Assembly: GCA_017459925.1 (NCBI GenBank)
Contig: JAFUCC010000002.1
Location: forward strand, 24,400-88,399
Length of the DNA: 64,000 nucleotides
Reading direction: 5' to 3'
DNA from: Eggerthellaceae bacterium
Lineage (GTDB): Bacteria > Actinomycetota > Coriobacteriia > Coriobacteriales > Eggerthellaceae
Shown here: positions 6,733-34,924 of the stretch, one piece after another
How positions within the stretch are numbered: the stretch's first letter is position 1
How the letters are laid out: each line of letters opens with the position of its first letter
Notes under the pieces: model-generated
Told to the model about the DNA's origin: nothing
Seen by the model: the letters and a program-made list of their open reading frames with translations, nothing else
Database searches by the model: none
Position numbers and translations under genes: made by a program

Positions 6733-9700
6733 CTACTTGCGGAACCGGGCGAAGAAGCCCTGCTTCTTCTCAGGCGGCATCTCGATTTCACGATGACCGC
6801 CTTCGAAGAAGCCCTGAACTTCCTCGTCAGCAGTCTTGGCGTCGTCCTGCCTGGCTTGCTCGGGGCTTTCCGGCGTTTCGGCGGCCTCGGCAACGGGGAC
6901 CTGATCCTCTGCGGGCACCGCGGCATCGGCCTCAGGCGCAGGCTGCTCGTTGACAAGCTCGGACTCAACCTGTTCAGGCGTTTGGCCCTCAACTTCGAGG
7001 CTTGCAAGATGGGCTGAAAGGTCGTCTGCGGACATGGGCTCTTCGGCTTCAGGCTGAATTTCGCCCTGAGATGGGCTCTCCGATTCGAGCGTAGGCTCGT
7101 TGGGGGTTTCGACTTGCGGATTGGGGGAGAGCAAGTCCTCGAGCGTCATGTCGGTGAGCGATTCGGCAGGTTCGGCTATGGCTTCGGCGGCCTTCTCGAC
7201 AACCTCGGCGGGTTCTTCGACCTGGTCGAGATTTGAAATGGGCTCGTCTTGGATAATCAGCGGAGCTTCCTGAAGAGGAACAGATTGGCCAGGGGTGGCG
7301 CTCAATTGCGCTATGAGCTCGGAGACGCGGTCTGAAGAAGGCGTGCTTTCCTGAGGTTCCTCAGGTGCCTCGCCGGTCACGATTTCGCCGAGCGTCATAT
7401 CGTGAATAGAGACCTCGCCGGGAACCTCCTCGAACGGATTTGAATTCGAAGCGTGCTCGGCAGCCTCTTCAGCCGGCGTTGAAATCGCGCCGAGTTCAGC
7501 GTCAAGAGCGGACAAGTCGACCGAAGCGATGGGCACCGGTTCGACAGCGGGCTCCGTCTGCGCAGAATCGAGAGGCGCGATACCATTGTCGGCGAGCACC
7601 GACCCGAGGTCGAAATCGATGGCCTCATGGGCGGTTTCAGCCTCAGGTTCAGGCTCGGCAGCATGCTCGGCCTCTGGCTCGGACTCGGCCTCATGTTCAG
7701 GCTCGGGTTCTGACTCAAGTTCTGGTTCGGGCTTCGGCTCCGGCTCCGGCTCCGGCTCTGATTGAGGCTCTGGTTCTGGTTCGAATTCAGGCTCAGGTTC
7801 AGGCTCAAGCTCAGGCTCAGGTTCAGTTTCAGGTTCAGGTTCCGGTTCAGGTTCAGGTTCGGGCTCGGCCAGAGTCTTCTCTTCTCCTGCATCAGCGTCG
7901 ACGCTGGCTTCGGCTATGCCCTCGCCATCGGCGACGGACTCCGTGGTTGCTTCAGCAACGGGCTCGTCGACCGAATCGAACGACTCGATTTCGTCGAGGC
8001 TGGGTTCAAGGGCGGACTCGTTGTCGTCAGATTGTCCGTCGTACGCCTCTGCGGCCTCATCGGGAATGGTGTTCTCAACGAGGGTGGGCTCCGGTTCGGG
8101 AATGATGGGGGCATTGGAAAGGATCTCGCCTATCGTGAGCTCCGTTAGCGGCGTGCTGGGCTCATTGGCGATTTCTTCTGCAGGTGACGGTGCTTCTTCC
8201 CAAATTGCCTCCTCAAAAGGCGATTCATCTTCGAAAATCGTCTCAGCGGAAGGGGTTTCGTCTTCGACGACGATGACGGGAATGCGCTCGGTAATCTCTC
8301 CGGGTTCGCCAAACGAGCTCATCGCCGCTTCCTCAGCTGCATCGGCAGCGCGCTTTATGAGCGTGGCTTGAGCATCGAACGAGGGCTCGGGATTTCCGTC
8401 TTCGTCGAGGTCGCAGAAAGCGCCGAGCGGCGTGTACGTTGCGTTGGGGCGCAGTTCGCGCAACTTGGCTGTGTCGCGCATGCACACGTCGATGTACGAA
8501 AGCACTTTGTTGCGGATTTCGCCGCCGGGAAGCGGCCAGGCGATTTCCACGCGCTTGTTGAGGTTGCGCGTCATCAGGTCGGCGCTCGACAAGTAGATGA
8601 CGCAATCGTCGGCCGGACCGAAGCAGTAAATACGGCTATGTTCGAGCAAGCGCCCGACGATGGAGACGACGCGCACGTTTTCGGTCGCGCCTTTCACCTG
8701 GGGGATGAGGCAGCATATGCCGCGTATGAACAGCGTAATGCGAACGCCGGCGCACGAAGCCTCGGAAATCTTCTCGAGGATGTCCTTGTCGGTGATGGAA
8801 TTGGCCTTCATGAACGCGCTTGCGGGCAGCCCCATGCGGGCGCGCTCGATCTGCTTGTCGAGGTTGTCGATGAGCATCGTCTTTATCTGCAGCGGGGCGA
8901 CGCGCAGGATGTCGTAGTTATCCGACACGTTTTCCAGCTGCATGTTGCGGAAGAACTCGACGGCGTCGCGGCCGAATGCCTCGTCGGTCGTGATGAACGA
9001 GAAATCGGTGTAGAGCTTGGCGGTCTTCTCGTTGTAATTGCCGGTGCCGAGCTGCGTGATGTGCTGGATCGCGCCTTCGGGGGTGCGGCGCGTGATGCAG
9101 CAGATCTTCGAATGCACCTTGTAATCGCGGAAACCGTAGAGCACGTTGCAGCCGGCTTGCTCGAAGCGCTGCGACCACTCGATGTTGTTGTTCTCGTCGA
9201 AACGCGCGCGCAGCTCGAAGAGCGCCGTGACTTCCTTGCCGGCATCTGCGGCGGCGATGAGCGCTTCGGCCAGGTGAGATTGGCTTGCCAGGCGGTAGAG
9301 CGTGATCTTGATGGAGATGACGTCCGGGTCGTTTGCGGCTTCGCGCAGGAGCTGCACGAACGGGTCCATGCTCTCGTACGGATAGGACATGAGCACATCG
9401 CGTTCTGCCACTTGGTCGATGATACGGCGTTTGCGGTCGAAGCATGTGGGCCATGCCGGCGTGAACGGCGGGTTCGACAACCTTTCGCGCTTCTTGTCGG
9501 AAAGCCTGCTGCCCAGGCCCCACGTGAAGCTGAGGTCGAGCGGCACGATGGTGTCGTACATCTGGTAGCGCTTCAAGTCGAGCTTTTTCAGCATGAGCTT
9601 TTCCATGACCGGCGACAGCGGTCGCTCGCATTCGAGGCGCACGGGAGCCAGGCGTGCACGCTGCTTCAGCAGGCGCTTCATGTGTTCGCGGTAATCCTCG

Positions 9701-10653
9701 TCTTGCTCGTCGAAGCCTTGGTTTGCGTCGATGTCGGCGTTGCGCGTCACGCAGATGACGTTCGTGTGCTTGATCTTGTACATGCTGAAGATTTCGGGAA
9801 CGAACATCTCGATGGCGTGCTCGAGGAGGATGAACTGGAATCCGCGGCCAGGCAGTTTGATGACGCGTTCACACTGGTGCGGCAGCGGGATGAGCCCGAG
9901 CACCACGCCCTCGGCGCCGCCTTTTTCCTTCTTGGACTTTTCCTTGTCCTTCTTCTTTTTCTTCTTCTTGCGCTCTTCTTCGGTCGCTTCGTCGTCGAGG
10001 CGCACGAGGATGTAGAGCTTGCCGTTTTCCAGATGGGGGAACGGGTGGCGCGAGTTGATGATCTGCGGCGAGAGGAACGGCTCGATGTTGTGCTTCACGA
10101 GGCCGAACAGGTAGTTTCGCTGCTCTTCGGAAAGGTCGTCGGGACGCAGGTGCCGCACGCCTTCCTTCGCCAATTGGCCGCGCACATGCTCGTACGTCGA
10201 TTCGTGGATGGGGTAGAGCTCGTGGCAGCGCTCGTGGATGGCGCGAATCTGCTCTTTGGCCGTCATGCCCGTCTTGGAATCGACGACGGGCGGGTCGATG
10301 AACGACAGGTCGGTAAGACTGCCGACGCGGACCATGAAGAACTCTTGGAGGTTGCTCCAGAAGATCGAGATGAAGTTGAGCCTCTCGAGCAGCGGAACTG
10401 ATTCGTCAGCGCCCTGGTCGAGCACACGCTCGTTGAACGTCAGCCAGGACAGCTCGCGGTTCTGCATGAAAACGCTGCCGCTGTCTTCCTCTTCCTCTTC
10501 GTCTTCATCGGCGGCAAATTCGTAGTAGGCATCGTCGCCTTCGGAGGCGCCGGCAAGGGCGGCTTCGTCGGACAGGGGTGCCAGAGGCTCGCTTGCTTGG
10601 TCGGCTTCGAACTCGCCAAATGCCGTGCCGTCGGTGATGCTCTCTTCGCTCAT
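6733..10653 (-). CDS. ppk1: polyphosphate kinase 1 fused to ~550 aa acidic low-complexity C-terminal tail
   Basis: PPK1-type sequence over the N-terminal ~750 aa ([14 protein letters not shown], two PLD-like His motifs [11 protein letters not shown] and [12 protein letters not shown]). ATG at 10653 preceded by GAGGAA; the track start 10671 is an upstream GTG. Tail from ~8400 down to 6736. Confidence 0.9.
7625..7872 (-). repeat. (Glu-Pro)n coding microsatellite-like repeat inside ppk1 tail
   Basis: Translates to [78 protein letters not shown]; DNA is iterated GGYTCNGG units. Confidence 0.9.
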
Positions 10654-10755
10654 ACGGTTTCCTCTGTTCACGATGGGTTAAAACATCATTACACTATACC
10701 TCATCAAGGTGCATATTTGGTGTATCATCGAGGCATCTTCGAGAAAGGAAACCGC

Positions 10756-24544: not shown

Positions 24545-25021
24545 CTGCGGCGTTTAGGGGTGCTGACGTTGCCGCCTGCTCGCGGCCGTTCATAAGGTGC
24601 GCCATTCCGAACGAAGCGAGGAATCTCCCCGCGTAACTTCCGATTTTCGCCAATTGAACAACGCCATTGGCGAAAACAGAAGCTTACGCGTGATGCGAAA
24701 CCAGCATGAACTGTGGTTTTACTGGTGCCACCCTAAAGTCGCTATCGAAAATGCCCGCGCGACTTTGATTTTTCGCCATCGTGATTTGAATAATTGAGAA
24801 AACGACCGCGAAACCTCCGATTACCTCCAGTAGGAATTTCAGAATTGGGAATATGTCCGCGCAATCACGATTTCTTTCCAGCTTACGAGATATATCGGTT
24901 AATCCATAGGGGCACACGATGTACGACCGCTGTCGCAGTGGGCAAGAACTGTAGGGGCGTTCCTTGAGTGCGCACGATGCGAAATCGGGCTGAGGCTCAT
25001 CAATCTAAACCAAATTCCAGG

Positions 25022-25050
25022 TTGAGGAATCGGGAAGTCTCGTCTAGAAT
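25022..25050 (+). promoter_or_regulatory. candidate promoter of adhesin gene
   Basis: TTGAGG-17 nt-TAGAAT in AT-rich spacer, ~165 nt upstream of ATG 25214. Confidence 0.5.
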
Positions 25051-25117
25051 AATGCCTGCAAATCAAGCGAAAAGTGGGCTCGCAACCAAAAGACAAACGC
25101 ACGCGTGAGACACAACC

Positions 25118-25154
25118 CTGGCTGGAAGACAACCGGAAGGCGCCTTCCAGCCAG
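25118..25154 (+). promoter_or_regulatory. 11-bp stem hairpin in adhesin 5' leader
   Basis: CTGGCTGGAAG-15 nt loop-CTTCCAGCCAG followed by TGTTGTGGTGT. Confidence 0.5.
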
Positions 25155-25213
25155 TGTTGTGGTGTATGTGCGGTGGGAAAGCGGGCAAGGTAGCGACAGC
25201 AGGGGAGACTTTC

Positions 25214-28200
25214 ATGGCGAAGATGAAGAACACGATGCGGAAGCTGACCGCGATGCTCGCGGCCGTGGCGCTGACAGTCGGCCTGTGCCCGGCTGGCGCC
25301 TTCGCAGTTGCGGGGGGGGGTACGCTGATTCCTCGCTAAACGACACCAACGCCATTACGGAGCAAGATAACGAGGCCGACGCCCAAGACGAGGGTGTTGG
25401 CCTCGGTGCTGATTCCAACTTGCAAGTGCAAGGCGGAATGACTGCACAGGCGATGAACGATCCGGATAATCCAGTGTATTGGAAATACGATTCCGCTACG
25501 TCTACCTTGTATCTCGGTGGATCAAAAGAAGGGATTCTAGAAGACGCGAACGAGTTCAGGGCTACCAAGACGAATAACACAATTTGGGCATTTCAAGAGC
25601 CTAACGTATCGGGATCGGGCGGGTGGTTTACTGGGGACATGGCAACCCAAGTTCGTAATGCAAAAAGCGTGAAGGTGGTCAATCCCCTAACAACTAAAAG
25701 CATCCACGGATGGTTTAAGAACATGACGCAACTTACTGATGTCGATTTGGAGGGCTACACGCCCATGGTGTCGAACTACTCTGTCGATTACGTATCGGCA
25801 TTTGAGGGTTGCACGTCTTTGGTAACGCTTAATGTGAAGCCCCTCTTTTACCATCCCGACCCGAACGAATACTACGTTTCCGTCTTCTATGATCGCATGT
25901 TCTACAATTGCTCTTCGCTTACGACGCTGCTTTTTCCGTCTGAGTACGTGCACTACGCTTGGGATCCGGGCGGTTCGAATCCAATCGAATACTACTACTA
26001 TGCCAAGCGCGGAGGCGGGAACATAGAATCCAGTCGTCTGTCGGCTGAAAAAATGACGTTTTACGGCTGCACTAAGCTTATCGGCGGCGAGGGGACGACG
26101 GTGGAAGCGCAAGTGTCACGTTTCGGAGGCACGGGGACGACTTTTCCTGAAACCATGGAAGGGTGCTTGGGGGTTGCGAACCTGTTTCAGATTGACGGGA
26201 CTATCGACGATCAAACTCCGTTTGCTGGCAGTTACGGGGTGTTCACGGCGTCGTCTTACGGCCTTGTTTACGACTCTAATGATGGGTCGCATCAAAGCAA
26301 GTCATACGATATCGCGCTAAATGCGAAGCCGACATTGGCATCAGCATCTTTCTTGGGGTTCAATTCGAGCGACCTGGTGTTTATTGGGTGGAACACCAAG
26401 GCTGACGGCTCGGGCACGTCATACGAGGTTGGCACTGAACTGGAAATGAGCCGAGCGACCATACTATACGCCCAATGGGCCTATCCTGTTATCTATGATG
26501 CTAACGGCGGCAAGGCGGGCACGGCTCCTGAAGACCAGATGAAAGAGCCCGGCAAGAACCTCACCCTGCATTCCGGCAAGCCTTCGCGCGACCCGGACCT
26601 GACACCCGTCACGACCACGCTGGCCTACAACGACGGCAGCGATGCCACGTCTGAGCTGAAAACCAATCGCACCGAGGAGTGGGAGTTCAAGGGCTGGACC
26701 ACTGAAGACACGGTAAGCGCCAGGAAGGGTGTCGTGACCGATGCGGAGTGGGATGCCTTGGAATCTTCGAAAAAGTATGCTCCGGGCGATACGTATTCAA
26801 CTGACGCCGAGCTGACGCTATATGCGCAGTGGAAGGCGAAAAACCCCTTGTATGCTTCTGTGGCATTGCCGAAGCCGGCCGATCGCGAAGGGTACGATTT
26901 TCTCGGGTGGTACACGGCTGCTGAGGGCGGTACCAAGGTCGGCGATGCGGGCGCGACCATCACGCCCGAGACCGATGCGACCCTGTACGCGCATTGGGCG
27001 AAGAAGTCCTATGAGGTCACCTACGATGCGAACGGCGGCGCAGGCACGCTCGAATCCGATACGAAGACCTATGGAGATACGCTCACACTGAAGAGCTCGG
27101 GCGTTTCGCGCGATAACGAGTCGGGTAAGGTCACGCTAACGCTCAACTACAAGGGCGGCTCGTATCAGGCGGGGAAGGACTCCGATTACTGGGCGTCTAA
27201 GAGTTCGGATGAGGCTACGACCACCACTACGTTCACGTTCACGGGCTGGAGCAGCAGCGCAGACGCCGAGACTGCGGAGTATTCTGCTTCCAACTCGTGG
27301 GCCTACACGGCCAACGCGGCTGCGAACCTGTACGCCGTCTGGTCCTCGAACACAACCGGCTACTCGTCGTACACGCTTCCTGATGCGACGCATCCCCAGA
27401 CTGGCGACAAGACGCACACGTTCAAGGGCTGGACGACTGCGCAGTACATCTCGACAGAATGGGGCAGCATCCCTGAAAGCTCGAGGTGGGAGGCGGGCGC
27501 GAGCTACGGCCCCGTAGAGGCCGACACTACACTCTACGCCGTATGGGATCCGCCGGCTTACGCTATCGAGTACGATGCCAACGCGGGCGACGATACGGTA
27601 TCCGGCGACCTCAGCGCGCAGAGCTATACGGCTGATGTGAACGTGCAGCTGCACGCTGCCCTCACGCGCACTCCTAAGGATGCCTCCTTCACCGTGACTT
27701 TCGACGCCAACGGCGGCGCGGTGTCTCCCGAGTCTGAGACGGCGACTAACTCGACCACGTACACGTTTAAGAAGTGGAACACGCAAGCCGACGGCGGCGG
27801 CACGGCATATGATGCGAGTGCCCAATATACGATCAACGCCGATGTGAAGTTGTATGCCCAATGGGAGAAGGGCGGGTCGGTTGCGTCCGTCAATCTGCCG
27901 ACGCCCACGCGCGACGGCTACAACTTCCTCGGCTGGACCGAAGCAGCTGATGGATCTGGCAATAAGCTGACTGGAACTTACACGCCGTCAGACGATGTGA
28001 CGCTGTACGCCCAGTGGGAGGCGAAGACCTACGCCGTGACGTATGACGTCAACGGCGGCGATGCGGACAGCAAGCCGGCCGATGCGACGAAGACTCACGG
28101 GGTCGACCTCGAGGTTGGGGCGGCTGCCACGCACGCGTATACGACTGGCGTCGTAACCGTGAAGTTCGACGGGCATGAGGGAACGGCGGCCTCAGGCTCG

Positions 28201-30738
28201 TCGCTTGACGACGCGAGTGCGCACTACAAGGTGGAGTACACGTTCCTGCGCTGGCAGGTCGGTGAATCCACTGCGTATGCCCCCGGCTCGCTGTATAAGA
28301 AGAACCAGGCCGCCACGCTAACCGCACAGTGGGCTGAGGAGACCTCGTTCACAGGTGTCGTGGAGCTGCCGACCGTGGAGCGCGAGGGCTACGACTTCCT
28401 CGGCTGGTACGACGGAGCTGGCAATGATGCCAACCTCATCGGCGATGCGGGAAGCGAGTACACGCCCGATGCCACTACGCCCGTGACGGTTACCTTGCAT
28501 GCGAAGTGGAAGGTGAAGGAGTACGACGTCACATACAACGCCAACACCGATCAGACGGTGACGGGCCTGCCCGATGCGGAGAAGAAGACGCATGGCGAAA
28601 CGTACACAGTTAGCTCCAACACGCCGACGCGCTCCGACACCGAGACGCACAGAATCACCGTAACCTACGACAGCCGCGGTGGAGCGACGACCCCTGACCC
28701 GAGCACTCTTGACGCCACGGTCGGCTACGTGTTTGACAAGTGGAACACGGCAGCTGACGGTAGCGGAACGGGGTACGCGCCTGGTGCTTCGTACACGGAC
28801 AACGACGAACTCGCGCTTTATGCCCAGTGGAACGAGAGCCTGTCCGGCAACACGGTGACGCTCCCCGCCGGGCCGACGCATTCCGTGGCCGGCTTCACGT
28901 TCCAGGGCTGGACGACCGACGATTACAAGACCACCGCGTGGGATAGCATTCCCAACGAGTCGAAATGGACGGCTGGCGCGGACTATAGCCCCACATCGAA
29001 TATCACGCTCTATGCTGTGTGGAACCCGCCGGTTTACGAGGTGTCCTACGACGCCAACGGCGGCGCGAGCGCTCCCGACAAGCAGTACAAGAAATACGAC
29101 GAGGGCCTGACTTTGTCATCCGAGGAGCCGACCTGGAACAACTCCACTGAAAGCATTGCCGTCACCTACAACGGCAATGGGGGTAGCGCGGAGCGCGGTT
29201 CCGACACGGTTACCGCCACGACAGGCTACATGTTCGAGAAGTGGACCGACCGGCAAGACGGCGACGGCACCGAGTATCAGCCGTCCGGCTCGTACACGCC
29301 CAATGCCGACGTGACGCTGTACGCGCAGTGGACCGAGTCGACCACATACGAGCCGGAGAAGGTGAAGCTCCCTGCTGCCGACCGGCCGGGCTACACGTTC
29401 CTGGGCTGGTACACCGCAGCCGACGGTGGCGAGTTCGTCGGCGATGCAGGCGCCGAGATCGCGGCGCCCGAGGAGACTACGACGTATTACGCGCAGTGGC
29501 AGGCATACGAGGAGCCGTCTGACCCCGTGTCGTATACGGTGGTCTTCCAGGTCCCCGATGACACGGATGGCGGTTCGGTCGGGAAGGACAGCCAGGAGTT
29601 CACGTTCGGCGAATCGCAGGCGTTAGACGCAGGAACCATCACGCCGCCTGCGGGCAAGGTGTTCTCGCACTGGGCTTCGGAAGGCGGCACAACCTACACG
29701 CAGAAGCAGCTCGTGAGTAACCTGACGAACGTCGACGGCGGGGAGGTAGTGCTGACGGCCGTGTGGAAGGATGCGCCCGCTGACGGCTCGCAGACATACA
29801 CCATTCAGTACTACGAGCAGGGGACGGATGGTTCGACCTACGCTATGGAAAGCGAGGAGACGATAGTCGAGGCGGTAGACACAGAGGTCTCTGTGCCCGA
29901 ATCCGCAAAGCTGGCGCCTCTCGGATTCCATTACGATGAGACGAATTCCGCCCCGTCTGGCACGGTTGAAGCCAACAGCTCCACGGTGCTCACCGTTTAC
30001 TGGGCGCGCAATCAGTTTGACGTCACGTTCGAGAAGGGTGCTGACGATGCTACCGGCTCGATGGATGGGCAGCATTTCGTCTGGGCTTCCGGCGAGGCGC
30101 TTACGCCTAATGCCTTCTCTCGCGCAGGCTGGAAGTTTACTGGCTGGAAGGTCACCGAGCAGAACGGTATGACGGCACAGGGCGAGAGCCTCATGAGCGC
30201 TCAGTCAAACGACGTTGTTGCAATGGTTGCGCAGGCGGTCGGCGATATGGTTGCTGACAAGGCCGACGGTTCACGACTTACGTGGGAAGATAACGGGACT
30301 GTTACGCTGACAGCGCAGTGGGTGAAGGATTCGAGCGGCGGGGATGACCCAGATAATCCAGGTGGTGATGACCCAGACAATCCGGGCGGCGACGACCCTG
30401 ATAATCCGAACAAACCCGGAGGCGATAAACCTGGTGGTGGTTCTGGCGACGCGGATGGTGAGTCCGGCAGTATCGAGAAAGCTGATTTTGTCCGCGAAGC
30501 AGCCAATAATAACTCGAACGCCAATGACAAGGCTCCCAGTACAGGCGATTCTAATAAGCTCATTGTCGAGGGCTTGGCCGTCATGGCGCTTCTTGCCGCT
30601 GTTGTGATGGCGCTGTCGCTTCGACAGTCACGTAAGCGCGCACACGTAGTTGGCACCTGGTCGGCTCCGGCTCGTCAAGCCGCCGCAAAGCGCCCAACGC
30701 CTCGCAAGACGACGCGTGGAAGGCATGTCAAGCGGTAA
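25214..30738 (+). CDS. giant cell-surface repeat adhesin, frameshifted at a G9 tract (phase-OFF or pseudogene in this sequence)
   Basis: ATG 25214 behind AGGGGAG encodes the signal peptide MAKMKNTMRKLTAMLAAVALTVGLCPAGAFA in frame 2. That frame stops at 25339. The 1.8k-aa body is open in frame 1 from before the G9 tract (25312-25320). Body: DUF285/BspA-like N-region (FEGCTSLVTLNV, MFYNCSSLTTLLF, FYGCTKLIGG), ~20 Listeria-Bacteroides (Flg_new)-type repeats (Y.V.YDANGG ... F.GW.T..DG.G..Y ... LYAQW), then a C-terminal PSTG motif, TM helix and basic tail. Confidence 0.85.
25312..25320 (+). repeat. poly-G (G9) homopolymer at signal-peptide/mature-protein junction
   Basis: cGGGGGGGGGt read directly; one extra G or two fewer fuses the signal peptide frame to the long ORF. 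Confidence 0.95.
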
Positions 30739-30795
30739 TGTCGTAGAACAAATGCAGAAGAACAATCATTCACGCTACGACATGTGAACCATTAT

Positions 30796-30830
30796 GCGCC
30801 GCCTCGTTTAACGGGGCGGCGCTGTCGTAT
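30796..30830 (+). terminator. probable terminator after adhesin
   Basis: GCGCCGCC-loop-GGCGGCGC hairpin ~60 nt past stop; weak T tail. Confidence 0.55.
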
Positions 30831-31099
30831 GCGCACGCTTCAGATTCTGCGGTGGTATGGATTTTCTTAGGTCAATAATCGCTGTTCGTGAGCTTCGTTA
30901 GGAATGCATTCTCGATATGCTGGCTGTGGAAAACGATCGCTCTCGCGAACGCGAAAGCTCATTTTCAAGCCATGTTTGCTTGTTTTTTACGGAAACATCG
31001 TTTGTTGGTGTCGCTGATTCTCTGAATTAACCGCAAAACGTTGCGAAAAGCCGACGAAAAGTCGTCCGAGAAGCTACGCGAATTCTCAAAACACAAGCT

Positions 31100-31128
31100 T
31101 TGACGTGCGAAAACGCGTGCATTACAAT
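31100..31128 (+). promoter_or_regulatory. near-consensus promoter giving a leaderless transcript
   Basis: TTGACG-17 nt-TACAAT; -10 ends 6 nt before ATG 31135. Confidence 0.65.
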
Positions 31129-31134
31129 CCGCCC

Positions 31135-32142
31135 ATGGTTTTCGTATTCGATGCGATAACGGCTTTGGAATTCTATCGGTCGATCTATCCGACGGAGCGA
31201 TCGCCTGTGCGCTTTGAGAATATCCCAGCCTGGGAAGAATGCGCGGTTACCGAAGAAGACGTGTGGAGCATGGCGCCAGCCTTCGTCACGCCGTCGTTTC
31301 TCGAGTGCGTAGGCGGTGTCATTCATGTGACGTCATTCGATCCGACCAGAAGGTTGAAATCGAAAACCCATCAGACCCATGCGTGGGCAGGGCGTATTCC
31401 CAAGGATTCATTTTGCCAATTCGATGTCGGTGTGTTTCTTCCGTCGCCACAGTTCATCTTCCTGCAGGCGGCTTCGCGATTGAACCTTGCTCAGCTCATT
31501 GCTCTCGGAGACGAACTGTGCGGCACGTATTCTTTCGATAAGTCCAAGGCGCGGGGACTACGACAGCGAGAGGTGCCGCTTACCAGCGTTCATGTGCTTG
31601 ACGCTTACCTCTCGTACGCGAAAGGCTGCAGAGGTTACAACAGGGCAAAAAGAGCTCTCGGGCATATCGTTGACGGGAGCGCGTCGCCAGCTGAAACGCG
31701 TGACGAGATGGAATTATGCCTTCCGCATAAGCTCGGCGGATATGCGCTTGAAAAGCCGAAGATGAACGAACAGATAATCCTTTCTCGACAAGCGTCCGTA
31801 GTGGCAAAAAAGACGTTCTGTCGCGCTGATTTGCTCTGGAAACGAGACAGTCCGAATGATTCCACCATCATCGAGCACCAAGGCGAGTTCGACCATATGG
31901 AAAGTAATCGCTTCAACGACGATCGCGCACGCGTAAACGCGCTGAGGCTCATGGGCTATGAAGTTATAGAACTAACAAGGTCGCAAGTCTGGGATCTTCG
32001 CGTATTCGAGGAAATCGCCCTGGAAATTGCAAAGCGCACTGGAAAGCGCATTCGAACTGAGAACAGGGGGCTCACACCTCAGCGAAAAGAGCTTCGTTCG
32101 ATTCTCGCTGATTGGAATGCTTCGTATGGAAGAAAGATGTGA
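31135..32142 (+). CDS. hypothetical protein with C-terminal DUF559/Vsr-like endonuclease-fold region
   Basis: C-terminus ADLLW...TIIEHQGEFDH...DDRARVNALRLMGYEVIELT fits the D...ExDG..H...D..R...L...G..V pattern of DUF559 proteins. The GTG 31105 track start lies inside the promoter, so ATG 31135 is preferred. Confidence 0.6.
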   Translation: MVFVFDAITALEFYRSIYPTERSPVRFENIPAWEECAVTEEDVWSMAPAFVTPSFLECVGGVIHVTSFDPTRRLKSKTHQTHAWAGRIPKDSFCQFDVGVFLPSPQFIFLQAASRLNLAQLIALGDELCGTYSFDKSKARGLRQREVPLTSVHVLDAYLSYAKGCRGYNRAKRALGHIVDGSASPAETRDEMELCLPHKLGGYALEKPKMNEQIILSRQASVVAKKTFCRADLLWKRDSPNDSTIIEHQGEFDHMESNRFNDDRARVNALRLMGYEVIELTRSQVWDLRVFEEIALEIAKRTGKRIRTENRGLTPQRKELRSILADWNASYGRKM

Positions 32143-32628
32143 TAGGGATTAGCTCGGCGGTATCACGGCATTCCAATTTCCATGTATTGAGACATTGACG
32201 CAAAAAGGCACTCACGCGCCCGTTTCGCAGAATTTGAATTCAAGGTTGGCAATAATTCCATGATACGCGTTTGTGGTCTAATGCGTGAACTGGGCGAATG
32301 TAAGAACGCTATGTTCTTAACCATCGATTTCGGACGCGAAACATCTCGTTTTCGCCATTAGCCTAAGCTCAATTCATCAAAACGAACGCATACCCCCCAT
32401 TTCTTTCCAAGCATTCAATTTGGATACGTCAAATCCCTTTATGTGCAAATCGAATGCAGCAGCTCAACGCGCTGGAGCGCAGACGTATAGGAACACACGC
32501 AATTGCTGAACCTGTGATGCTTTGGGACAGCTGCATCCGATTAAGATATCATCTACCTCCGAGATTAAATCCACTGAGAACCGCGAAATCAGAGTGCGAT
32601 TCCGGCTATAAGGCGATAAGGAAGCGAC

Positions 32629-34078: not shown

Positions 34079-34924
34079 GTGGCAGGAGATTTCACGATAA
34101 CGCTGGAATCCTACGACGGAACCGACAAAGATGTCGTCGTAGCCGCCGGCGTAGATAAAATCGGGCACCGGGCGTTCACGAACAATCGGTACGTGCATTC
34201 GATAACGTTGCCTGAAGGCGTCGAGGTCATCGAAGACGAGGCCTTCTCAGCGTGCGTGAACCTCCGCTCCATCAACATTCCCTCTACCGTGCGAGCAATT
34301 GGCGCTGGCGCATTCAAAGGCTGCTGGCGGCTTGAGGAGGTTCATGTTCCCGAAGGCGTTGAGACCCTTGGCCTGAAGACGTTCGCGCGATGCCGTTCGC
34401 TCAAGACGCTCACGCTGCCCACGACATTGCGTTCGATTGGCGAGGCATGCTTCCAGCATTGCGGCGACTTGGAAACGCTCGTCCTGCCCGATGCGCTCGA
34501 GAGCATCGGGACGAGCGCCTTCTACAACTGCAAGACGCTGAAGGACGTCGCCTGGCCCTCGGCTCTTGAAGTAGTCGAAAACGAGGCGTTCCGCGGATGC
34601 GCTGCTCTAGAAGAAGTCGAGATGCCCGAGTCGGTTGGCTGGATGGGGCAGCGGTGCTTCAAGGATTGCGCATCGCTCGCATCTGCCGCCTTGCCGCCGA
34701 ACATCGAGTTCATCGAGGAGGGCATGTTCGAGGGTTGCTCGGCGCTCGATGCCGTGGTGGTTCCCAACGATTTGTCTCATGTCGAATCTCGCGCGTTTGC
34801 CGACAGCGGCTTATCGCAGGACGACATCGCGTTCCCGGAGGACTGCCACATAGCCCCCGACGCCTTCGCGCAATCGGAGCCGAAAGAAGTGACCGGCCGC
34901 GCCGAGTGGGATCCCGAATCATGA
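34079..34924 (+). CDS. BspA-type leucine-rich-repeat protein without signal peptide
   Basis: ~10 iterations of I..GAF.GC..L..V.[LI]P..[VL]; GTG start 4 nt after ffh stop. Confidence 0.75.
   Translation: MAGDFTITLESYDGTDKDVVVAAGVDKIGHRAFTNNRYVHSITLPEGVEVIEDEAFSACVNLRSINIPSTVRAIGAGAFKGCWRLEEVHVPEGVETLGLKTFARCRSLKTLTLPTTLRSIGEACFQHCGDLETLVLPDALESIGTSAFYNCKTLKDVAWPSALEVVENEAFRGCAALEEVEMPESVGWMGQRCFKDCASLASAALPPNIEFIEEGMFEGCSALDAVVVPNDLSHVESRAFADSGLSQDDIAFPEDCHIAPDAFAQSEPKEVTGRAEWDPES

Follow-up and report, generated by a model that had tools for sequence, protein, structure and literature searches.

In Bifidobacterium breve UCC2003, the first gene in two pilus clusters of the sortase-dependent type is split by a G tract (Penno et al. 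2022, PMC9187656). The tract is G11 at bbr_0113a/b and G10 at bbr_1889a/b; the Sec signal is encoded upstream in a short open reading frame (ORF), and the LPXTG body downstream in a long one (PMC9187656). The reference genome is OFF at both loci and pili are obtained when the ORFs are placed in frame. The tract lengths are mixed according to error-controlled sequencing, the gut of mice shows an enrichment of ON lengths, and the effect is attributed to slippage at the DNA level. Tracts of G8-G13 are found at such loci in five Bifidobacterium species (PMC9187656). Here, we describe a gene of similar organization in an Eggerthellaceae bacterium. It is located in a 64,000-nt stretch, hereafter the window, that corresponds to positions 24,400-88,399 of contig JAFUCC010000002.1 (forward strand). 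All coordinates are those of the window, and the features of the split gene and of the island that contains it are on the + strand. A run of nine guanines (G9) separates a signal-peptide coding segment from a very long body. We propose, with a probability of about 0.6, that this tract is a slipped-strand contingency switch of a large secreted, cell-anchored surface protein containing leucine-rich repeats (LRR) and Flg_new repeats, and that the assembly caught it in the OFF state.

The initial annotation held that this design was not described in high-GC gut Actinobacteria. This was wrong, as B. breve and the other Bifidobacterium species show (PMC9187656). Both B. breve and the present bacterium are high-GC gut Actinobacteria. 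In both, a Shine-Dalgarno sequence and a Sec signal are in the short ORF, the poly-G tract is intragenic and the long ORF encodes an anchored body. Both reference sequences are OFF, and in both cases the annotated starts are internal and leave out the signal peptide. The G9 length is within the G8-G13 range. The sizes of the two ORFs are 65 and 2,674 amino acids (aa) in B. breve versus 41 and about 1,805 aa here. Unlike the B. breve genes, the present one belongs to Coriobacteriia/Eggerthellaceae from the ruminant gut, has neither a pilin domain nor a sortase gene nearby and is not the first gene of a pilus operon. It is a stand-alone LRR and Flg_new gene, located in an island between ftsY and ffh, and it falls outside the Bifidobacterium pilus-cluster family. 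In B. breve, measurements cover the heterogeneity of the tract, the phenotype of the ON state and enrichment in vivo, whereas the present locus is known from sequence alone.

Campylobacter, Neisseria and Haemophilus possess poly-G/C contingency loci in which intragenic homopolymers govern the phase variation of surface structures, and Campylobacter, too, is not known to have canonical MutS/MutL mismatch repair. The present locus shares with these systems a run of at least eight G in the 5' part of a surface-related gene, the toggling of the frame by changes of ±1 nt and a tract that stands out against the genome. The organisms are different. They are Gram-negative, mostly low-GC pathogens with small genomes and dozens of loci per genome, whereas here a single locus is found in 64 kb of a high-GC, commensal-type Gram-positive bacterium known from assemblies only. 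Within the phylum Actinobacteria, two reports describe reversible frameshifts in short G/C homopolymers of glpK and other genes in the Mycobacterium tuberculosis complex (PMC10334774; bioRxiv 10.1101/717272). The targets presented there are mainly metabolic or regulatory and do not correspond to the point at which a signal peptide joins a surface protein. The tracts of this complex are usually shorter (about 7 C), and mycobacteria have NucS.

With respect to the protein itself, the resemblance is with internalin-like or InlB B-repeat proteins bearing BspA/DUF285 LRR. The common features are an N-terminal LRR domain, many Flg_new repeats and a C-terminal anchor. Unlike these proteins, the N-terminal domain is an orphan at the sequence level and the anchor motif is APSTG instead of LPXTG. 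Our literature search retrieved no paper on repeat-mediated phase variation in Coriobacteriia; a preprint on Eggerthella lenta describes inversion-based variation instead. The mechanism is well established elsewhere. The lineage (Coriobacteriia/Eggerthellaceae) and the gene type (non-pilin, with no adjacent sortase) may be new for such switches, and the present one is possibly the first in Coriobacteriia.

Two reading frames on either side of a G9 tract

The gene starts at ATG 25214. A Shine-Dalgarno-like AGGGGAG (25201-25207) is located 6 nt upstream, in agreement with the good ribosome-binding site (AGGGGAG) noted in the initial annotation; its GGGGAG part occupies 25202-25207. Residues 1-31, MAKMKNTMRKLTAMLAAVALTVGLCPAGAFA, encoded by 25214-25306, form a putative signal peptide that ends with an AxA motif. 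The signal peptide was judged by eye and from the hydropathy profile, in which residues 11-25 form the second-highest peak of the protein. It appears to be of the Sec type, with a cleavage site predicted from the Sec signal-peptide pattern. A lipoprotein signal was considered and rejected by inspection, V-G-L preceding the Cys with L at position -1.

In the assembled G9 state, the frame of ATG 25214 translates to MAKMKNTMRKLTAMLAAVALTVGLCPAGAFAVAGGGTLIPR and ends at TAA 25337-25339, giving a 41-aa product. The tract occupies positions 25312-25320. The adjacent (-1) frame, which encodes the body, contains no stop over 25105-30738. Its part upstream of the tract encodes an Arg/Gly/Asp-rich sequence without a hydrophobic signal segment. 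Signal and 1,805-residue body are in two frames and the tract is their only junction. No second lesion is present along the 5.4-kb downstream ORF (1,805 codons). Direct reading and translation confirm all the sequence features of the initial annotation, among them the position of the tract, that of the stop codon and a body frame that is already open before the tract.

In silico addition of one G (G10) produces a single 1,841-aa ORF containing AFAVAGGGYADSSLNDTN. Deletion of two G (G7, worked by hand) gives the same fusion minus one Gly, that is 1,840 aa. Both outcomes had been predicted in the initial annotation. The tract corresponds to codons 34-36 of the 1,841-codon repaired gene and is therefore in the 5' part of the coding sequence. 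G7, G10 and G13 are ON lengths, G8 and G9 are OFF lengths. With G8, translation stops after 38 aa at TGA 25326-25328, read in GTA CGC TGA; the same codon ends the signal-peptide frame with G11. Stops in both OFF phases come 2-5 codons past the tract. In silico, a change of ±1 nt in the tract thus toggles between a full-length and a truncated product.

The tract might also be bypassed at the level of gene expression. A -1 ribosomal frameshift or transcriptional slippage on the G9 allele would yield some full-length protein from unchanged DNA. GC[G GGG GGG] GGT is a formal X XXY YYZ heptamer in the signal-peptide (zero) frame, and a -1 shift gives exactly the AVAGGGYADSS product. However, no stimulatory structure is found at the usual distance of 5-9 nt. 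The only strong hairpin is a 14-bp stem inside the coding sequence (25371-25405; 100-nt fold of -35.9 kcal/mol, z -3.7). It is 50 nt 3' of the tract and past the zero-frame stop, which is too distant to stimulate frameshifting at the tract. Productive transcriptional slippage is known mainly on A/T runs, which also counts against recoding. No relatives offer conservation of the site, and the Bifidobacterium precedent was assigned to the DNA level. We therefore regard recoding as highly improbable.

Homopolymer depletion, codon choice and mismatch repair

G9 is the sole G or C run of at least 7 in the window, which has 60.4% G+C. G6 and C6 occur once each, versus about 28 and 20 expected from base composition. 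Homopolymers are thus strongly depleted. We extended the count to a 502-kb Eggerthellaceae set, composed of the window and of 28 related loci (L001-L028). In this set, G/C runs of length 3, 4, 5, 6, 7, 8 and 9 are found 9161, 1717, 316, 29, 2, 0 and 3 times, respectively. Beyond length 5, each further base brings the count down to about 0.07-0.09 of its previous value. Extrapolation of this decay leads one to expect about 0.01 runs of 9, versus three seen. The runs of 9 are a separate class and the G9 tract is more than chance. G/C runs of at least 6 are roughly 20-fold below the composition expectation in these Eggerthellaceae sequences.

The G run is not forced by the protein sequence, and its codon choice is atypical, GGG being a minor Gly codon. 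The share of GGG among Gly codons is 14% in housekeeping genes and 16% in the split gene, and GGG-GGG is used at 0 of the 27 Gly-Gly(-Gly) sites of the gene body. In a distant relative, seven Gly residues immediately following the signal peptide are encoded by GGC GGA GGC GGA GGC GGC GGT.

Both NucS and MutS-MutL are reported to be missing from all the Coriobacteriia analysed (PMC5290159). Slippage loops at G9 are expected to stay uncorrected, because both repair systems are reported absent. The depletion of homopolymers fits selection against slippage in such a clade. The reported absence of repair likewise fits the genome-wide purge of runs of at least 6 and makes the retained G9 conspicuous. 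Given their reported repair deficiency and the strong homopolymer depletion observed in the present sequences, Coriobacteriia lend themselves naturally to the question of how genomes without such repair cope with slippage.

In the contingency model, the polymerase would gain or lose one G in the run during replication. With MutS-MutL and NucS reported absent, slippage loops would be left uncorrected, so that part of the population would always be in the opposite phase. In ON cells, the protein would be exported and anchored, and would presumably serve in adhesion to the host, to feed particles or to other microbes. OFF cells would make the short peptide only; any product of the internal starts (M75, M171) would be cytoplasmic for want of a signal peptide. 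OFF would be the majority allele in the sampled gut community. The Gly residues encoded by the tract would come directly behind the presumed site of signal-peptidase cleavage, where an acidic linker begins, and changes of ±3 nt should be harmless there. If the tract switches, Eggerthellaceae vary their surface with the bet-hedging device of mucosal pathogens and Bifidobacterium. These bacteria attract increasing attention with regard to the metabolism of drugs and diet, and switching would affect how colonisation, escape from phages or immunity, and strain-level phenotypes are read from metagenome-assembled genomes (MAGs).

The two other runs of 9 in the 502-kb set are outside coding sequences. 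One is a G9 in an AT-rich non-coding stretch of a human-gut Eggerthellaceae MAG (locus L020, positions 1547-1555; contig CAKTUD010000005.1). It lies about 70 nt 5' of the start of a gene encoding a 724-aa secreted Flg_new protein with an LPXTG-like LVQTG anchor. Its non-coding character is indicated by a TAA that follows the tract in the frame of the gene. This G9 may be a phase-variable switch of the promoter or leader type. The other is a C9 (locus L007, positions 349-357), found 16 nt past the purM stop in the purM-purN intergenic region, with no surface gene nearby. It is conceivable, though rather doubtful, that Eggerthellaceae, perhaps Coriobacteriia as a whole, purge homopolymers yet keep runs of about 9 G at surface-protein genes, both in coding and in promoter or leader positions, as an uncatalogued lineage-wide contingency repertoire. 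If true, a major clade of gut commensals would possess a set of contingency loci.

Copies of the gene and competing explanations

In the collections searched, the gene is carried by two ENA metagenome contigs (63.6 and 100 kb; sample label XIEF21-1_SAMN15829972) and by one NCBI MAG protein record only. The latter, MBQ9041230.1, is annotated as 'InlB B-repeat-containing protein' and is located on a 107-kb MAG contig. All these records probably derive from one study. One ENA contig, L051, is identical to the window over 21.4 kb save one single-nucleotide polymorphism (SNP), and direct reading shows that it also has G9. A G9-specific product of 57 aa is recorded on both ENA contigs, both of which are consequently G9. 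Exact look-ups of Ffh, of the 1,766-aa call, of ORF335 (the second gene of the island), of the 57-aa ORF and of S16 each returned the same two ENA contigs. FtsY and ORF345, with the start codons chosen here, have no exact protein record.

Public gene calls start at internal ATG codons, 25438 in ENA (1,766 aa) and 25723 in NCBI (1,671 aa, from Met171). The gene appears 'intact' in these records, with no signal peptide. Annotation from an internal start conceals the true N-terminus, the frameshift and the switch.

Search for relatives revealed little beyond these copies. The N-terminal domain retrieved nothing from species-genome contigs, and a word-based protein search with the N-terminal region gave Flg_new noise or nothing. 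From metagenome contigs, only two low-GC relatives of 31% identity were obtained, both without the tract. A search with the full-length protein retrieved the NCBI call of this gene and, beyond it, relatives of at most 30% identity over a substantial part of the query.

The initial annotation left two possibilities, a phase-variation switch or a homopolymer error. Both are still the right alternatives. The switch has gained indirect support, and its interpretation as such is only partly supported. An error would imply an intact gene whose real tract is in frame (G10). Homopolymers of at least 9 are classic sites of indel errors, and Penno et al. described 'G's end' problems of Illumina reads on G tracts as well as differences between annotated and measured lengths (PMC9187656). 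Moreover, the assemblies probably all come from the reads of one study. On the other hand, two assemblies that are one SNP apart read G9 directly, and the 57-aa G9-specific ORF is present on both ENA contigs. Should the sample be one from Xie et al. 2021, as we deduce from its label, the data are Illumina NovaSeq 2x150 reads obtained without polymerase chain reaction (PCR). A consensus of many PCR-free 150-bp reads rarely miscounts nine bases; with such data, a miscount of the nine G's is unlikely but not impossible. The housekeeping genes of the window are intact and no other frameshifted gene was seen in it. A sequencing or assembly error is, in our opinion, quite improbable.

The second explanation to be considered is a recent, non-adaptive pseudogenisation. 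In this case, an accessory gene of the island would already have had a run of G10 (or G7), which would be a mutational hot spot and not a selected switch. Loss or gain of a base in this run would then have put the gene on its way to decay. The consensus is indeed OFF in every assembly where it can be determined. The gene is dispensable, as the strain-specific island is absent from 28 related species, and there is no orthologue with a conserved tract. Against a decaying gene, the 1,805 codons contain zero further disabling mutations, and a run of a minor codon in a genome that purges runs of at least 6 would need explaining. Furthermore, a G9 in a lineage that reportedly lacks mismatch repair would often revert, which makes 'dead' and 'OFF' hard to tell apart. 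The B. breve reference genome is likewise OFF at two functional loci. Overall, we find simple pseudogenisation unlikely.

The slipped-strand switch is thus the reading that we favor. It is supported because the tract is an outlier, because it uses a minor Gly codon, because the OFF frames stop quickly and because the body is free of lesions. It is further supported by the reported absence of repair, by the L020 G9 near another Flg_new gene and by the B. breve precedent, as well as by the fact that G9 is reproduced in the independent ENA assembly L051, one SNP away from the window. Several observations weigh on the opposite side. No variation of the tract length was observed, both ENA contigs being G9 in records that probably stem from a single study. 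The 1,841-aa ON form was not found in a collection of about 15 billion proteins. Genomes, metagenomes and protein collections contain no orthologue in another strain or species. The Flg_new surface-protein genes of L049, L050, L056 and L057 have no tract, including L057, which is another high-GC gene; the tract is not a family-wide feature. Finally, adaptive switching and a recent frameshift at a hot spot of mutation look alike when judged by sequence alone.

Protein domains, leader region and genomic island

The repaired protein is built like the surface or adhesion proteins of Gram-positive bacteria, and its domain content suggests a role as an adhesin. An acidic linker, followed by a divergent LRR domain of the DUF285/BspA type, is encoded by 25321-26380; the assignment comes from sub-threshold profiles and from the domains of relatives. 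This N-terminal domain of about 350 residues has sub-threshold matches with Pfam LRR_5 (E 0.0098) and with the NCBIfam PARCEL repeat. An exhaustive HMMER search of 1.84 billion representatives gave relatives of at most 43% identity over about 100-170 residues. The five top-ranked of these were scanned against Pfam: four contain DUF285 and one contains a BspA-type LRR_5. AlphaFold2, run on the N-terminal 390 residues without an alignment, gave a mean predicted local distance difference test score (pLDDT) of only 31.

Region 26380-30325 encodes a Flg_new (Listeria-Bacteroides / InlB B-repeat) array, in which the L[YTH]AxW motif gives a count of about 14 units. The array matches PF09479 (E 5.1e-69, 7 scored stretches), PF18998 (E 3.4e-07) and TIGR02543 (E 7.2e-08). 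At the DNA level, it carries diverged direct repeats. It is followed by three tandem 24-nt repeats (30337-30408), identified by repeat search and translation, that encode GGDDPDNP and would form a wall-spanning spacer. The putative C-terminal anchor, to the membrane or the wall (30532-30738), is composed of APSTG, a hydrophobic helix, RQSRKR, a 32-aa basic tail and the stop codon. The helix, residues 1783-1803, has the highest hydropathy of the protein. Sortase anchoring of the product is uncertain because the LPXTG model TIGR01167 is not matched. Weak hits were obtained with NPXTG (E 0.11) and with the C-terminus of Gram-positive pullulanases (E 0.0029). The motif is APSTG here, and the extra 32-aa basic tail is atypical for LPXTG sortase substrates.

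Upstream of the gene, a consensus scan suggested a promoter-like TTGAGG-17-TAGAAT (25022-25050), a weak candidate with 9/12 matches. The leader also contains an 18-nt inverted repeat with a 15-nt loop (25111-25161), 53-103 nt 5' of the ATG. The single SNP that separates ENA contig L051 from the window over 21.4 kb falls in its 3' arm, at position 25155, which is T in the window and G in L051; the G gives a perfect 18/18 stem. Possible roles of this inverted repeat are those of an operator, an attenuator or an I-shaped terminator, and the population may be polymorphic at this site.

The split gene and ORF335 occupy about 8.1 kb (24545-32628), exactly between the ftsY stop and the ffh start. The upstream flank contains rnc, smc and ftsY; the downstream flank contains ffh, rpsP and other genes. 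In 28 of 28 Eggerthellaceae species genomes found by FtsY search, mostly ruminant-gut MAGs, ffh follows ftsY with a gap of 4-1152 bp. In the closest one, L001, a red-deer MAG with FtsY 98% and Ffh 97% identical, only AAC is present between the TAG of ftsY and the ATG of ffh. The split gene and ORF335 are therefore a strain-specific island, since ftsY and ffh adjoin in related genomes. The GC content is lower at the ends of the island (0.55 and 0.54). We claim neither target-site duplications nor terminal inverted repeats at its borders, where only a weak 29-nt pair with 72% complementarity was found. The window gave no hit in Rfam and tRNA scans, and no riboswitch or tRNA marks the island. With gaps ranging from 4 to 1152 bp in 28 species, the ftsY-ffh spacer looks like a variable spot in Eggerthellaceae.

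Neither a sortase (PF04203) nor a pilin domain is present among the neighbours, namely smc, ftsY, ORF335, ffh and a cytoplasmic LRR_5 protein. ORF335 (31135-32142) encodes 335 aa and is also called as a 335-aa gene on the ENA contig. It matches no Pfam or NCBIfam family, and none of the 48 loci obtained by the FtsY search, of which 28 are from Eggerthellaceae, contains a relative. By eye only, its C-terminus resembles DUF559/Vsr-like endonuclease folds. The LRR_5 protein, of the BspA type, is encoded directly 3' of ffh (34079-34924; 281 aa, E 6e-63) and has no signal peptide. Ten of the 28 related loci have a homologue (59-84% identity) at this position just past ffh. It is odd to find an LRR protein without a leader beside core translation and secretion genes. 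Further away, on the - strand, the polyphosphate kinase 1 ORF (6733-10671) encodes 1,312 aa, which is unusually long for PPK1. About 550 residues form a C-terminal extension, part of which is a low-complexity stretch of PARP-like acidic repeats.

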